A stretch of DNA of 64,000 bases from Desulfuromonadales bacterium (GTDB taxonomy: Bacteria; Desulfobacterota; Desulfuromonadia; Desulfuromonadales; SZUA-540): NCBI GenBank assembly GCA_033549025.1, contig JAWSUS010000005.1, positions 64,001 to 128,000 of the forward strand, read 5' to 3'. Below the pieces are notes generated by a model, which was not told the DNA's origin, searched no databases, and worked only from the letters and a program-made list of their open reading frames with translations. This document shows positions 9,236 to 37,328 of this stretch, piece after piece. A program made the translations under genes and the position numbers. Position 1 is the stretch's first letter, and the number at the start of each line of letters is the position of its first letter.

Positions 9236-9986
9236 GGGCGTGAGCAAGCGCTTCGGGGGGCTGCCGGCCCTTGATGATGTCTCCTTCGGGGTCACGGCCG
9301 GACAGGTGACGGCCCTGATCGGGCCCAACGGGGCCGGCAAGAGTACTCTGATCAACGTCATCACCGGCGTGCTGCCGCCGAGCAGCGGCGCCATCGCCTT
9401 CGGCGGTCGGCCTATCGCCGGACTGCCGGCCCACGAGGTGGCCCGCCTCGGCATCGCCCGTACCTTTCAGAATCTCAAGATCTTTCCCCGGCTCTCCGTG
9501 CTCGACAACGTCCTGTGCGGTCTGACCTGCGAAGCCGGGCGTTCCCTGCTCATGGCCATGTTGCGTCTGCCCTATCTGCGCCACCGGGAACGGCGCCTGC
9601 GTCTGCGGGCTCTGGAGGCTCTTGACCGCTTCGCCCTGGCTGATAAAGCGCATTGGCCCGCCGGGGTGCTAGCCTACGGCGACAAGAAGCGGGTGGAACT
9701 GGCGCGGGCCAGCGTCAGCGAGCCGCTGCTGCTGTTGCTGGACGAACCGGTGGCCGGCCTCAATGCTGACGAGACAGCCGCCGTTGCCGAGCAGCTGCGC
9801 CGCCTGCGCCTCGCCGGCCACACCCTGTTGCTGGTGGAGCACGACATGGACCTGGTCATGGGCGTGGCCGACCAGGTGGTGGTGCTCGACAGCGGCCGCT
9901 GTATCGCGCAGGGGACACCGGCGGAGATCCGCCGCAATCCCCTCGTTCTTGAAGCCTATCTGGGGCGCATGGAGGCGACCGCCTGA
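9222..9986 (+). CDS. livG: ABC ATP-binding protein (LivG-like)
   Basis: GPNGAGKST, GIARTFQN, LLLLDEPVAG, LVEHDM, EAYLG. Confidence 0.92.
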   Translation: MLRLEGVSKRFGGLPALDDVSFGVTAGQVTALIGPNGAGKSTLINVITGVLPPSSGAIAFGGRPIAGLPAHEVARLGIARTFQNLKIFPRLSVLDNVLCGLTCEAGRSLLMAMLRLPYLRHRERRLRLRALEALDRFALADKAHWPAGVLAYGDKKRVELARASVSEPLLLLLDEPVAGLNADETAAVAEQLRRLRLAGHTLLLVEHDMDLVMGVADQVVVLDSGRCIAQGTPAEIRRNPLVLEAYLGRMEATA

Positions 9987-12076
9987 TGCTGACAGTCACC
10001 AACCTCACCGCTCATTACGGGGCCGCCCAGGCCCTCTTCGGCGTCAGCTTCGAGGTGCGTGCCGGCGAGACGGTGGCCCTGGTCGGGGCCAACGGCGCCG
10101 GCAAGAGTACCCTGCTCAAGTGTCTGATGGGACTGGTCAAGCCGACGGCCGGGAGCATCCTTCTCGATGGTCGCGATTTGACCGGCAGCGCTCCGGCCCG
10201 CATGGTCGGGCAGGGACTCGCCCTCTCGCCGGAAGGACGGGAGGTGTTCGCCCAGCTGTCGGTGCACGAAAATCTGCAGCTCGGCGCCCTGGCTCTGCGC
10301 CTGGCCAAGAAGGAGGAGTCGGCGCGCCTGGAGGAAGTCTATGAGCGCTTTCCCAAGCTCCGGCAGCGCCAGACGCAGCTGGCCGGCACCCTCTCCGGCG
10401 GTGAACAGCAGATGCTCGCCATGGGACGGGCTCTTATGGCCAAGCCGCGCCTGCTGCTCCTCGACGAGCCGAGTCTGGGGCTGGCCCCTCTCATCACCGA
10501 CGAGATCTTCGCCATCATTCATCAGCTCGGCCGGGCCGGCACCACCATACTGCTGGTGGAGCAGAACGCCGCCCGCGCCCTTTCCGCCTCCGACAGTGCC
10601 TATCTGCTGGCCAACGGCCGCATCGTCGAGCAGGGGGAAAGCTCCCGTCTTCTCACCGATCCGGCGCTCCGTTCGGCCTTTTTGGGCGCCGCCAGTCAGG
10701 ACAACCCCGCTGCCAGTCGTCTCGGCGCTGCCGGGTTGACCAATATCCGCCTGGAGAAACCCGCTATGCACCAGAAGAATTTCATGCCCGCCTTTGAAAA
10801 CGAAGCCCAGCTCAAGGATCACCAGCTCAAAGGGCTGCAGTGGACCGTGCGCCACGCCTACGAAGGATCGAGCTTTTACCGGCAGCGGCTGGATGAGGCC
10901 GGCGTCAGCCCCGACAGCATCCGCAGCTTGGACGATGTACGCCGCCTCCCCTTTACCACCGCCGACGATCTGCGCGACGGCTATCCCTTCCCCCTGCGCG
11001 CCGTGCCCTTCGAGCAGATTGTGCGCGTGCATGCCAGTTCGGGCACCACGGGCAAGCGCAAGGTGCTCTGTTATACGCAGAAGGATCTCGACGACTGGAC
11101 CGACTTCTTTGCCCGCGCCTACCAGATGGCCGGCGTCACCCCCCTCGATCGCGTGCAGATTGCCGTCGGCTATGGGGTGTGGACGGCCGGCATGGGCTTT
11201 CAGCTCGGCTGCGAAAAGATCGGCGCCCTCGCCGTGCCCGTCGGGCCGGGCAATATCGATCTGCAGATCCAGTTTCTTATCGATTTCCAGTCCACCGTCT
11301 TCTGCTCCACCGCCTCCATGGCCCTGCTGATGGCCGAAGAGATTCACAAGCGGGGGGTGGCCGACAAAATCGCCGTCCGGAAGATCATCTACGGCTCCGA
11401 GCGCTCCAGTCGCTCCATGCGTCAGAAAATCTCCGAGCTCTTTGGTGGGGCCGAACTCTTTGATATTACCGGGCTCACCGAACTCTACGGCCCCGGTACC
11501 GGCATCGAGTGCAGCGAGCACGACTGCATCCACTACTGGGGGGATTACTACCTGCTGGAGATCGTCGATCCCGACACCCTGCAACCCCTCCCTGACGGCG
11601 AGTGGGGGGAAATGGTCCTCACCAGCCTGTGCAAGGAGGCGTCGCCCCTCATCCGCTATCGCACCCGCGACATCACCCGCATTATTCCCGGTGCCTGTAC
11701 CTGCGGTTCGGTGCTCCCCCGTCATTCCCGCATCAAGGGGCGCAGCGATGACACCATCAAGTTTCGCGGCGTCAACATCTATCCGTCGAGCATCGATACC
11801 ATCCTCTCCGCCGTGCCCGGGCTCGGCTCCGAATATCAGATTCATCTGACCCGTGAAGAAGCGTCCGGGCGGGACAGCATGCGCCTGCTTATCGAGCGCG
11901 CCCAGGGGGTCGGCGCCGAGCGCAGCGCTGAACTCATCCACGAGGCCATCCACCAGATCAAGAAGCAGCTCATGGTCTCCGCCGACCTGGAGTTGGTCGA
12001 TTACGGCAGCCTGCCCCGCTCTGAGGGCAAAAGCAAACGCGTCTTTGATACGCGGATTCAGGATGAAATCGTCTGA
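9986..12076 (+). CDS. In-frame fusion of LivF-like ABC ATPase and phenylacetate-CoA ligase (PaaK/PaaF-like)
   Basis: aa 1-235: GANGAGKST, LSGGEQQMLA, LDEPSLGLAP, VEQN. From aa 261: DDLRDGYPF, VHASSGTTGK, GLTELYGPG, PLIRYRTRD, GRSDD, RGVNIYPS. No stop codon between the domains. Confidence 0.88.
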   Translation: MLTVTNLTAHYGAAQALFGVSFEVRAGETVALVGANGAGKSTLLKCLMGLVKPTAGSILLDGRDLTGSAPARMVGQGLALSPEGREVFAQLSVHENLQLGALALRLAKKEESARLEEVYERFPKLRQRQTQLAGTLSGGEQQMLAMGRALMAKPRLLLLDEPSLGLAPLITDEIFAIIHQLGRAGTTILLVEQNAARALSASDSAYLLANGRIVEQGESSRLLTDPALRSAFLGAASQDNPAASRLGAAGLTNIRLEKPAMHQKNFMPAFENEAQLKDHQLKGLQWTVRHAYEGSSFYRQRLDEAGVSPDSIRSLDDVRRLPFTTADDLRDGYPFPLRAVPFEQIVRVHASSGTTGKRKVLCYTQKDLDDWTDFFARAYQMAGVTPLDRVQIAVGYGVWTAGMGFQLGCEKIGALAVPVGPGNIDLQIQFLIDFQSTVFCSTASMALLMAEEIHKRGVADKIAVRKIIYGSERSSRSMRQKISELFGGAELFDITGLTELYGPGTGIECSEHDCIHYWGDYYLLEIVDPDTLQPLPDGEWGEMVLTSLCKEASPLIRYRTRDITRIIPGACTCGSVLPRHSRIKGRSDDTIKFRGVNIYPSSIDTILSAVPGLGSEYQIHLTREEASGRDSMRLLIERAQGVGAERSAELIHEAIHQIKKQLMVSADLELVDYGSLPRSEGKSKRVFDTRIQDEIV

Positions 12077-12112: not shown

Positions 12113-13267
12113 ATGAAACGCGTGTTGGGATTTTTCAGTCTGCTGGTGCTGCTGGCCAGTCCGGCGCTGGCCGCAGAGCCGATCACCATCGGCGCTTTCT
12201 TCGATCTGTCCGGGCGGGCGTCCTTTATCGGCACCCCGACCAAGCTGGTGGCCGAAATGGTCGTCGACAAGATCAATCAGGAGGGGGGCATCAACGGCCG
12301 CCCTCTGGCGCTGGAGATCGGCGACACGGAAGCCAATCCCGCCAAGGCGGCCAATATCGCCAAAAAGTTCATCTACAAGGACAAGGTGGCGGCGATTATC
12401 GGTCCCACCCTCACCGATACGGGAATGAACGTCAAAAAGATCGCCCATGACGGCCGCGTGCCTATCGTCATGACGGTCGGCGGCGATCCGGTCATCATGG
12501 GGGGCGACAAGTTCGGCCCCTTCGACTGGATCTTCAAGTCCCCGCAGCGCTCCCGGACCGCCGTCGAACGGCTGCTCGTCTATCTGCAGGAAAAGGGCCT
12601 GACCCGCGTGGCCCTGCTGATCGCCTCCGATGGTTTCGGCAAGGACGGCGCCGGCTGGATGCACCAGCTCGCCGCCCAGTACGGTGTCGAGATCATGCTG
12701 GAAGAGTCTTTCGGCCCCCGCGACACCGATATGACCGCCCAGCTGACCCGGGCCAAGAACGCCAAGCCCCAGGCCATCATCTGCTGGACCACCGGCCCCG
12801 CCGGCGCCATCGTCGCCAAGAACAAAGCGCAACTCGGCATCGACCTGCCCCTGTTCCAGTGTCACGGCCTGCCCGACCCCAAGTACATCGAACTGGCCGG
12901 AGCCGCTGCCGAGGGGGACCGCATGCCGGCCACCAAGCTGATGGTGGTGGATGAGCTCGATGACAGCGATCCGCAGAAAGCGGTCATCCAGGAATTCATC
13001 CGCCTATACAAGGAGAAAGGCTACGACAAACAGTTCCCCATCAACACCCATTCGGGCTACGCCTGGGATGCCATCATGATCCTGGCCAATGCCATGAAGA
13101 AGGTCGGCACCGAGCCGGCAGCGCTTCGCAAAGCCATTGAAGAGACCACAGGCTATGTCGGCGTCTCCGGGATCTACAATCTGACCGCCGAGGATCATAA
13201 CGGCCTCGGCGTTGATTCCATGGTGATGGTCGAGGTCAGAGAGGGTCGCTTCGTCCTGGCTCGCTAG
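12113..13267 (+). CDS. ABC substrate-binding protein (LivK-like; possibly aromatic acid binding)
   Basis: AGGAGGAGG RBS, signal peptide, PITIGA..DLSG.AS, INQEGGINGRP, DTDMTAQL, DHNGL. Confidence 0.9.
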   Translation: MKRVLGFFSLLVLLASPALAAEPITIGAFFDLSGRASFIGTPTKLVAEMVVDKINQEGGINGRPLALEIGDTEANPAKAANIAKKFIYKDKVAAIIGPTLTDTGMNVKKIAHDGRVPIVMTVGGDPVIMGGDKFGPFDWIFKSPQRSRTAVERLLVYLQEKGLTRVALLIASDGFGKDGAGWMHQLAAQYGVEIMLEESFGPRDTDMTAQLTRAKNAKPQAIICWTTGPAGAIVAKNKAQLGIDLPLFQCHGLPDPKYIELAGAAAEGDRMPATKLMVVDELDDSDPQKAVIQEFIRLYKEKGYDKQFPINTHSGYAWDAIMILANAMKKVGTEPAALRKAIEETTGYVGVSGIYNLTAEDHNGLGVDSMVMVEVREGRFVLAR

Positions 13268-13293: not shown

Positions 13294-13328
13294 CGGCCCC
13301 GGTCTTTTCGTCCGGGGCCGTATTTTTT
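13294..13328 (+). terminator. Intrinsic terminator of the liv/ior/paaK operon
   Basis: CGGCCCCGG-loop-CCGGGGCCG-TATTTTTT. Confidence 0.8.
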
Positions 13329-13340
13329 GGAGGGGATAAA

Positions 13341-13428
13341 ATAAAAAAGGCGCACCGGCCAGGAGAGAGGCCGATGCGCAAAAGGAAGGAGGGTTGTGTC
13401 GATTGGCCAAGTGTGAACCTGACCAATT
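13341..13428 (-). ncRNA. Candidate ~88-nt small RNA with anti-Shine-Dalgarno tract
   Basis: Own promoter (TTGACC-17-TATTGT), 11-bp 5' hairpin, single-stranded ACAACCCUCCUUCCUUUU, then an 11-bp GC terminator with U-tract. G-U pairs favour the minus strand. Confidence 0.6.
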
Positions 13429-13434
13429 GGGTAA

Positions 13435-13463
13435 ACAATACCAAGACGATAGGAAAAGGTCAA
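13435..13463 (-). promoter_or_regulatory. Sigma70 promoter of the candidate sRNA
   Basis: Minus strand TTGACC (13463-13458), 17-nt spacer, extended -10 TG-G-TATTGT (13440-13435). Confidence 0.65.
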
Positions 13464-13568: not shown

Positions 13569-13610
13569 ACCGGCGTTTTTCAGGACAGATGAAAGGGGTT
13601 GTTTATCATT

Positions 13611-14807
13611 ATGGATCGTAAGATGGTTCTTGTTACCATGACCGGGCCGGACAAGCCGGGCATCGTCGCCGCAGTGACCGGCAATATCGCCGCCGCCGGG
13701 GCGCGCATCCGCGACATCGAGCAGACGGTGACCCATACGCTGCTTTCCTTTTCGGTGCTCATCGATTTTCCCACGGGCGAGAGCGACCAGAAACCCCTGA
13801 TCAAGGATCTCCTTTTCCTGGCCAAGGAGCTTGGGCAGGATCTCGATTTCCAGGTGCTGTCCGAATCGGAGTACCGGCGTAAAACGACCAAGCACGCCTA
13901 TGTGGTGACCATTCTGGGTGGTGAGGTGAGCGCTACCTCGCTGGCGCGGGTGTCGCGCATCCTGGCCGACAACCGGGTCAATATCGAGCGTATCTCCAAG
14001 CTGACGCAGGGACAGCTGCGCTGCGTCGAGTTTCTCATCACCACGCCGCCGGAGCTGGATGTCAAGGCCATGACCCGCAAGCTGCTGCGCGTCGGCGCCA
14101 GCCTCGGCGTCGACATCGCCATGCAGAAGGAGAGCCTCTACCGCCGGGCCAAGCGCCTGGTGGTGATGGACATGGATTCCACTCTCATCCAGATCGAGGT
14201 CATCGACGAGTTGGCCCGCCTGGCCGGAGTCGGGGAGCAGGTGGCGGATATCACCCTGCGAGCCATGAACGGCGAACTTGACTTTCAGGGGGCGCTGCGG
14301 GAGCGGGTGGCCCTACTGCAGGGGCTGTCGGTCGACGCGCTTGAGGAGGTCTACCGCCATATCCCCTTCACGCCCGGGGCCAAGAACCTGGTGCGCATTC
14401 TCAAGCGGCTCGGCTTCCGCACGGCAGTCATCTCGGGTGGCTTCAAGTTTTTCACCGATCGCCTCAAGACCGAACTGGGCCTGGATTACGCCTACGCCAA
14501 CGACCTGGAGATCGCCGACGGCAAGGTGACCGGTGCGGTCAAGGGGGAGATCGTCGACGGGGCCCGCAAGGCCCAGTTGTTGGAGGAAATTGCCTGTCAG
14601 GAAGGGATTACCCTCGACCAGGTGGTGGCCATCGGCGACGGCGCCAACGATCTGCCCATGCTGGGCAAGGCCGGGCTGGGTATCGCTTTCAACGCCAAGG
14701 CCCGGGTGCGGGAGCAGGCCGATTACCATATCAACCAGCAGAGTCTCGACTCCATTCTCTATCTGCTCGGCTTCTCCGAGCGGGAGATGGCCGAGATCGA
14801 CCAATGA
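13611..14807 (+). CDS. serB: Phosphoserine phosphatase with N-terminal ACT domains
   Basis: GPDKPGIV ACT start; DMDSTLI, EVIDELA, ISGGF and GDGANDLPML HAD motifs. Confidence 0.95.
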   Translation: MDRKMVLVTMTGPDKPGIVAAVTGNIAAAGARIRDIEQTVTHTLLSFSVLIDFPTGESDQKPLIKDLLFLAKELGQDLDFQVLSESEYRRKTTKHAYVVTILGGEVSATSLARVSRILADNRVNIERISKLTQGQLRCVEFLITTPPELDVKAMTRKLLRVGASLGVDIAMQKESLYRRAKRLVVMDMDSTLIQIEVIDELARLAGVGEQVADITLRAMNGELDFQGALRERVALLQGLSVDALEEVYRHIPFTPGAKNLVRILKRLGFRTAVISGGFKFFTDRLKTELGLDYAYANDLEIADGKVTGAVKGEIVDGARKAQLLEEIACQEGITLDQVVAIGDGANDLPMLGKAGLGIAFNAKARVREQADYHINQQSLDSILYLLGFSEREMAEIDQ

Positions 14808-37001: not shown

Positions 37002-37024
37002 CGGAAAACAACCGGTTCCTCTCG

Positions 37025-37110
37025 CCGCTTCCCTACGCCGGTACGAACCGGATCAGGTTCAAAGGGTCATCCCTGGTTGCGGGATTCTCAGTGTGCCACT
37101 CCCCTAGCGG
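37025..37110 (-). ncRNA. TPP riboswitch
   Basis: Minus strand CCGCTAGGGGAG...CTGAGA...ACCCTTTGAACCTGATCCGGTTCGTACCGGCGTAGGGAAGCGG matches the THI-box consensus, upstream of thiDE-thiC. Confidence 0.96.
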
Positions 37111-37328
37111 TCTGCACTTTTCCAGCGGCCCAGCCCGTGCCGGCGCCTGCCGCCCTTCATCTCCGGACGAGCCGTGAGAAGAAGAAAAAAGCCTAATGGA
37201 TTAGGGTTTTGCTGTCAACCAGAATAATGCGGGAATCACCATTCCGCCGGCGGCAGAAGGAGAGTTTCTCCTTTACAGTCTCGGACCATCGTGCTAAGAA
37301 ATTTTTTTCTTCCAGAGGCCTTTCCGTT

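Follow-up and report, generated by a model that had tools for sequence, protein, structure and literature searches.

CU-rich seeds that pair with Shine-Dalgarno (SD) sequences are found mostly in Gram-positive bacteria, according to the accessible part of a review (PMC12205990), one reference title of which names the U-rich/hairpin/poly(U) module of Hfq-binding sRNAs. The LhrC1-5 RNAs of Listeria (accessible text of PMC4132741) are of this kind: multi-copy, with CU-rich anti-SD motifs. They belong to a Firmicute, are near-identical copies under a single regulator, carry a UCCC motif in three sites, and can dispense with Hfq. In Neisseria the siblings NgncR_162/163 (NmsR), an adjacent and near-identical pair with three stem-loops and the seed in an internal loop, repress gltA, fumC and sucC by loop pairing at the ribosome site (available portions of PMC9973317). 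AbcR1/2 of the Rhizobiales, as described in the open part of PMC4152367, are built of three hairpins, carry an anti-SD module in each of two places, the first loop and the first linker, and control an ABC-transporter regulon. In Geobacter the citric-acid (TCA) cycle is repressed by a protein, HgtR. The accessible sections of PMC2817479 present it as a DNA-binding protein of 62 aa that regulates at the level of transcription, RpoN-dependent, monocistronic, hydrogen-induced and a repressor of gltA, with sites at gltA, acnB, icd, oorD, ato, frdC, atpG and nuoA; kor, frd, atp and nuoA are included in its regulon.

Here we describe a predicted 88-nt RNA of a Desulfuromonadales bacterium that works like LhrC, NgncR_162/163 and AbcR1 and is a member of none of them. 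It shares no homology with the LhrC/csRNA-type family models (no Rfam match), is unrelated in sequence to NgncR_162/163, and has neither a match to the AbcR Rfam model nor the three hairpins. No characterised trans-acting sRNA was met for these metal-/sulfur-reducing bacteria in the literature searched. Neither the 88-nt RNA nor the two groups of relatives treated below (an order-wide class and a σ54-dependent sibling) are described in the open full-text literature, here including the accessible parts of PMC2700814, PMC3543383, PMC2996986, PMC6013743, PMC5568370 and PMC11934962; subscription papers and the atoC text of Weinberg et al. may bear on this. The multicopy-sequence supplement of PMC3543383 does not show the class motif, and PMC6013743 lists sRNA coordinates without sequences. 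The result is a whole class of candidate trans-acting sRNAs with a concrete seed and a named TCA target set for metal- and sulfur-reducing bacteria.

The window analysed is a stretch of 64,000 nucleotides, to which coordinates without a contig label refer. On its minus strand a -35 hexamer TTGACC (13458..13463), a 17-nt spacer and an extended -10 element (13435..13443, with TG at 13443-13442 and the hexamer TATTGT at 13440-13435) make up a σ70-type promoter between 13463 and 13435; there are three promoter-like sites in 2 kb, against 0.4 +/- 0.6 in shuffles. The transcript likely starts at 13428, 7 nt past the -10 box, and the predicted RNA of about 88 nt (13341..13428) opens with a 5' hairpin of 11 bp including three G-U pairs (13402..13427). 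This is followed by a 22-nt linker (13380..13401; unpaired probability >= 0.9) that carries a second anti-SD tract, CCCUCCUUCC, and has UUUU immediately 5' of the terminator in the manner of an Hfq module. The intrinsic terminator hairpin (11 bp, 13350..13379) has a GCGC stem of the type shared across the order-wide class; its 8-nt loop UCUCUCCU (13361..13368) is the exact complement of AGGAGAGA and is the predicted seed, and a U6 tail occupies 13343..13348. All these elements lie where the initial annotation had placed them. Folding gives -37.1 kcal/mol (z -6.98, 0/200 shuffles equally good) for the 88-nt minus strand and -28.3 kcal/mol (z -2.80) for the plus strand.

The RNA lies between a gene for a LivK-like substrate-binding protein (12113..13267, +), which is convergent, and serB (phosphoserine phosphatase; 13599..14807, +), which is divergent, so that no minus-strand upstream gene needs the terminator. 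The livK operon, as had been annotated, has its own, a separate terminator-like hairpin (13294-13320) with U tract (13294..13329, +). The locus has the build of an sRNA gene: it possesses a promoter and an intrinsic terminator and lacks a conserved ORF. A U-rich stretch followed by a hairpin and a poly(U) tail, together with hfq in the genome, is what an Hfq-dependent sRNA would have. Both hfq and csrA are encoded. The 88-nt RNA, which the initial annotation did not recognise, has no Rfam match, whether at the gathering threshold or at E <= 10, apart from noise of 13-15 bits. Metatranscriptome contigs (4 of 5 sets found) provide shallow pieces crossing the promoter of the RNA and are uninformative at the atoC locus on contig C9; they weigh neither for nor against expression. 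We regard the locus as very probably a real sRNA gene, its transcript being predicted.

All four genomes of the genus carry the RNA beside serB, with fold z scores of -5.5 to -7.6. Their alignment preserves the -35 hexamer, the TG, hexamer positions T, A, G and T of the -10 box, CCUCCUUCCUUUU in the linker and the terminator loop; variation is seen in the spacer and in both stems, whose pairing is maintained; in G002 and G003 the 5' hairpin is retained with changed pairs. The self-contained sRNA gene that had been proposed is thus upheld by the conservation of its promoter and structure, the C/U tract included. At the serB loci of other families the RNA was present in 0/15, and the locus is genus-restricted. 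In G002 and G003 its neighbour is an acyl-CoA ligase gene and the liv/ior/paaK block is not adjacent, so the tail-to-tail arrangement with the ABC operon, to which the initial annotation had attached significance, is incidental. A search for livK in G002 (one contig, 100% complete) and G003 (78% complete) did not find it. Within the window the liv/ior block, which is missing beside serB in two congeners, also contains a fusion of a LivF ATPase with a phenylacetate-CoA-ligase-like domain (9986-12076, +; 696 aa).

Weak BLAST matches in other families proved to be the same 3' module behind promoters of their own. A model of the last 61 nt of the RNA (R1, 16 seed sequences) matched 124/150 genomes of the order, spread over 25/27 families and with 1-17 copies per genome, as against 8/75 genomes, weakly, in the other order of the class, which we take to be Geobacterales, and 3/117 outside the class. 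When 100 fetched loci were searched with R1, 114 matches were obtained, seeds included, and their gene context was called with a home-made gene finder. A same-strand stop lies within 90 nt of 3/114 matches compared with 220/334 control terminators of our genome; a good σ70 or σ54 promoter is present at 56/114 and 20/334, respectively, and 62/111 matches face a convergent gene. The stem shows double changes at 7/8 pairs in an alignment fitted to the model. CUCCU occurs in 100 of the 108 distinct members with an unpaired probability of 0.94, which is partly due to selection by the model, and is followed by G in 93/100 loops. In a model-free check of this genome, 8/173 orphan terminators had an unpaired anti-SD loop but only 1/268 of those that follow genes (p 0.003); with a looser motif definition the values were 11/173 and 9/268. 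The sequence UCUCUCCU is carried by few of the 114 matches: the four genus copies, two σ54-type RNAs and one other. A loose terminator pattern matched 151/151 genomes and was kept only as a lead because the reversed control often matched too.

Judged by sequence and predicted fold, then, the 88-nt RNA is a member of an order-wide, multi-copy class of free-standing RNAs with an anti-SD terminator loop. Members have the CU-rich, exposed and multi-copy character of anti-SD RNAs, unlike 5' parts, and σ70, σ54 or activator-type promoters. The linker tract emphasised by the initial annotation does exist, but the anti-SD element that is conserved across the class is the terminator loop; the kinship of the RNA with this class, one member of which is Rfam's atoC, was missed.

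Several further elements were seen in the course of these searches. Genus g5 has tandem arrays of four class members (L078:2419-3109, L079:1754-2467, L080:2084-2797), mostly with a 218-nt period, in which most repeat units come with a promoter of their own and with two CACCUCC motifs. In a subfamily made up of G000:C13:56270-56415 (L068) and the g5 arrays, the -35 region is overlaid by a TACG-N6/7-CACGTGG box, which suggests a common activator site. Other class-like elements of the genome are located at C8:112336-112389 (+), C17:44195-44250 (-) and C23:16161-16210 (-), one with a σ54 and two with σ70-like promoters, and family f18 (G051, G112) has 16-17 model matches per genome, of a GCCCCAC-stem type. 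At G000:C1:10745-10883 (L072:1423-1561, +) a type II hammerhead ribozyme (RF02276, 59.5 bits) stands directly after a stop codon and is followed by a CCCUCCUG-loop terminator downstream; by cleaving itself, the ribozyme could set free a 3'-UTR sRNA belonging to this class. No convincing CsrB-like GGA clusters emerged from a scan for them.

The Rfam atoC motif (RF01733) has a consensus that starts with a -10 box, continues with a 5' hairpin, and ends in a terminator with CCCUCCU loop and a U tail. Table 1 of Weinberg et al. 2010 (PMC2864571, available in part) lists atoC RNA as probably cis-regulatory. Of its 27 matches 26 have their own σ70 promoter and 22 face a convergent gene, which is an Rrf2 regulator in 19 of the 22; this argues that the 'cis-regulatory' motif is an sRNA. 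The 88-nt RNA comes from the same lineage and has the same size and overall plan, a 5' hairpin followed by a CCUCCU-type-loop terminator (in the variant UCUCUCCU) and U tail, and like those 22 atoC matches it has no same-strand downstream gene, facing livK instead. The two differ in stem, 5' hairpin and loop, and the atoC loop has no preference for TCA genes. Against the atoC model the 88-nt RNA gave no match at E <= 10 (gathering threshold 50 bits). The genome has its true atoC elsewhere, at C9:9782-9873 (L162, +; 52.1 bits), and the 88-nt RNA is therefore a sibling and not a member. The C9 element has a near-consensus promoter, converges on the gene for an Rrf2 regulator and diverges from metX, and looks like a free-standing sRNA.

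A paralogue at C16:55990-56113 (L249:2991-3114, +; coordinates including the promoter), likewise a candidate sRNA, has a σ54 promoter and the loop CUCUCUCCCC, and is located between the gene for an Fe-S/hydrogenase-like σ54 activator and ptsP. Twelve loci of this RNA were without a match in Rfam. Model R2, which was built without the 88-nt RNA, finds the σ54 RNA as a single copy in 55/75 genomes of the same order and 0/75 of the other order; there is no R2 match in f5 (0/8), f10 (0/1), g31 (0/4), g47 (0/5), G025 and G039. Two pattern matches, L333 and L334, are not the σ54 RNA and were left out of its alignment. In the window the 88-nt RNA is the only R2 match (26.1 bits, E 3e-4). It shares the loop complementary to (A)GGAGAGA, and departs from the R2 type in its σ70 promoter and its position beside serB. 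The 88-nt RNA would be a genus-specific sibling of the order-wide σ54 RNA, adding a second, σ70 input.

The place of the σ54 RNA behind the activator is the one which in G168 is held by a σ54 promoter and a 62-codon gene, taken as hgtR by length, promoter and position. Among 80 activator loci, 76 of which had enough downstream DNA, the RNA is present in 72 (62 by pattern, 10 more on reading), hgtR in four and both in none. The four hgtR-type loci are titled Geobacter, Geoanaerobacter or Geobacteraceae; three other Geobacteraceae-titled loci carry the σ54 RNA, titles being a rough guide only. Our genome has only a weak relative of HgtR, elsewhere (35% over 48 aa, compared to 71% in G164). The σ54 RNA occupies, behind the Fe-S activator, the slot in which Geobacter-type genomes keep the repressor of the same TCA genes, and it is arguably a more important finding than the 88-nt RNA.

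The distribution of AGGAGAGA was compared with that of the σ54 RNA in a panel of 30 genomes chosen by us, which are related and not independent. At gltA the site is found in 23/23 genomes with the RNA and in 0/6 without it (one lacked gltA), and at mdh in 22/23 and 0/7. In f5, f10, G025 and three genomes of the other order both the site and the complementary loop are missing. A prediction made beforehand, that AGGAGAGA would be absent in g31 and g47, failed in 4/4 genomes: the site stands at both genes in G036, G101, G083 and G141, none of which has an R2 match. Together with G041, which was as predicted, the co-occurrence failed in 4/5 test genomes, and the updated totals for genomes without the R2 RNA are 4/10 at gltA and 4/11 at mdh. 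Either a diverged or other reader exists in g31 and g47, or AGGAGAGA has another cause.

In this genome AGGAGAGA is present at the ribosome site of 33/3,051 genes, among them 7/15 TCA genes (p about 5e-11), or 7/11 when only AGGAG-type sites are counted (p 3e-8, post hoc). These are gltA, acnB, icd, mdh, both fumarases and one succinyl-CoA:acetate CoA-transferase; the kor and frd genes, which belong to the HgtR regulon, are without it. The site also occurs at three rubrerythrin-domain genes, a di-haem cytochrome c peroxidase, a thiol peroxidase, a thioredoxin-reductase-like gene, nuoL and a molybdopterin oxidoreductase subunit, and at only 1/46 genes of the ribosomal-protein region. A loop-based ranking of 3,051 start regions puts a CoA-transferase, acnB, mdh and gltA high; 12 TCA genes reach a median rank of 26.5/3,051 with the UCUCUCCU loop, which drops to about 1,500 when the CCCUCCUG loops of two paralogues are used instead. 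The loop of G003, two bases longer, gives a 10-bp pairing with its own gltA and mdh. The initial annotation had overlooked the match of the loop to the ribosome sites of TCA-cycle genes. This match was noticed after ranking and is post hoc, and it does not prove selection on the 88-nt RNA, since one C-to-U change suffices and the σ54 RNA already explains the site. The 8-nt loop is closed by an 11-bp stem, which limits the length of the duplex.

With the linker, the first of the 3,051 start regions is that of a succinyl-CoA:acetate CoA-transferase gene (C27:28384-29943), at -27.8 kcal/mol, a value that does not surpass those of shuffled linkers (-27.5 +/- 2.5; 25 shuffles, each of two kinds). 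The pairing covers 19 bp over the ribosome site and start codon and is kept in G001 (-25.9) and G002 (-23.4). Leaders of gltA and mdh (L255-L314) have in many genomes a U/C-rich UUUCAUUUUCC-like stretch 5' of the ribosome site, possibly a second RNA or protein site.

Our main reading, to which we assign a probability of about 50%, is that the locus encodes a σ70-dependent sRNA whose loop UCUCUCCU pairs, via Hfq, with AGGAGAGA sites and represses TCA and peroxide-defence mRNAs. The RNA would be transcribed from its own promoter and held by Hfq through its U-rich/hairpin/U-tail end; pairing of the terminator loop with ribosome sites would then block translation initiation on gltA, acnB, icd, mdh, the two fumarase and the succinyl-CoA:acetate CoA-transferase mRNAs, and on those for peroxide defence. 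The linker may serve as a second seed for AGGAGG-type sites, with the other CoA-transferase as the best candidate. The RNA is in this way predicted to dampen the citric-acid cycle, a role taken by a protein repressor in the related Geobacter.

As the main alternative, the RNA might be a true anti-SD sRNA of the class with other targets, linker-directed or not, the TCA match of its loop being a by-product of drift in CU repeats. Such repeats slip easily, the loop is one transition away from the class consensus, the linker is conserved as well as the loop in 4/4 genomes and keeps its C27 pairing in two congeners, and AGGAGAGA persists where the σ54 RNA is not found. We nevertheless hold this to be unlikely, though deserving of serious attention, as UCUCUCCU is rare in the class and is kept in G003 though both stems have changed, and the linker match does not rise above its shuffled null. 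It is a good deal less probable that the RNA is a decoy or sponge for a protein and that AGGAGAGA at the TCA genes serves a protein or the ribosome, for example as an Hfq ARN-type or an S1 site. The sequence AGGAGAGAGA is purine-rich and ARN-like, as this would require, AGGAGAGA survives in the four genomes mentioned, and the base after CUCCU is a G in 93/100 loops though most AGGAG sites in this genome are preceded by A. What speaks against it is the rarity of AGGAGAGA in the ribosomal-protein region and the joint absence of site and loop in f5, f10, G025 and the three other-order genomes. CsrA, which is encoded, binds GGA according to the accessible part of PMC11934962, but GGA is here on the non-transcribed strand; a plus-strand CsrA sponge was considered and rejected.

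The remaining explanations are weaker still. That there is no functional RNA, and that the hairpin terminates stray antisense transcription from the serB promoter region or forms a second liv barrier, is quite improbable: the metatranscriptome contigs are only shallow and cross the promoter, and the locus is confined to the genus, but the promoter boxes stay constant around a variable spacer, the hairpins survive changed pairs, the element remains where the liv operon is absent, and a promoter with an orphan terminator is the context seen across the class. The initial annotation suggested an AbcR-like regulator of mRNAs for ABC substrate-binding proteins, with the neighbouring livK as a plausible target. 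Both motifs can indeed form pairs with the livK site ACAGGAGGAGG (-17.6 and -13.7 kcal/mol), but the rank of livK is 133 by linker and 76 by loop among 3,051 genes, 2/4 congeners lack the operon next to the RNA, and livK was not found in the complete G002, so that this proposal has become highly improbable. We give hardly any credence to a cis-antisense antitoxin directed against a small plus-strand ORF, which would begin with an ATG at 13375 inside the terminator, preceded by AGGAG. A 61-codon ORF with SD-like sequence does exist, but its length is 61, >85, 10 and 36 codons in four congeners, a start codon at that spacing occurs in only 30/100 class members (ATG in 10), and there is no plus-strand promoter upstream, where the liv terminator intervenes. 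Membership of the type I toxin-antitoxin systems was rejected, no conserved small ORF being found on the opposite strand.

Beyond the single locus we tentatively propose, at somewhat lower confidence than our main reading, that acetate oxidation is controlled by RNA in the Desulfuromonadales and by protein in Geobacter. The same Fe-S σ54 activator would drive either hgtR or the RNA and never both, TCA and peroxide-defence mRNAs would bear a dedicated AGGAGAGA code that is read by the terminator loop of this RNA, the 88-nt RNA would be a second reader under σ70, and the class would include the misfiled atoC. If true, a transcription factor and a small RNA have been swapped in one genomic slot with control of the same pathway, and the down-regulation of acetate oxidation in organisms without HgtR would be explained.

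Two minor observations concern other parts of the assembly. On contigs C18, C67, C69 and C70 the 16S 3' ends are preceded by two different sequences, possibly from contamination on small contigs. Lastly, the window contains a TPP riboswitch at 37013-37115 (-), with a score of 73.2 bits.
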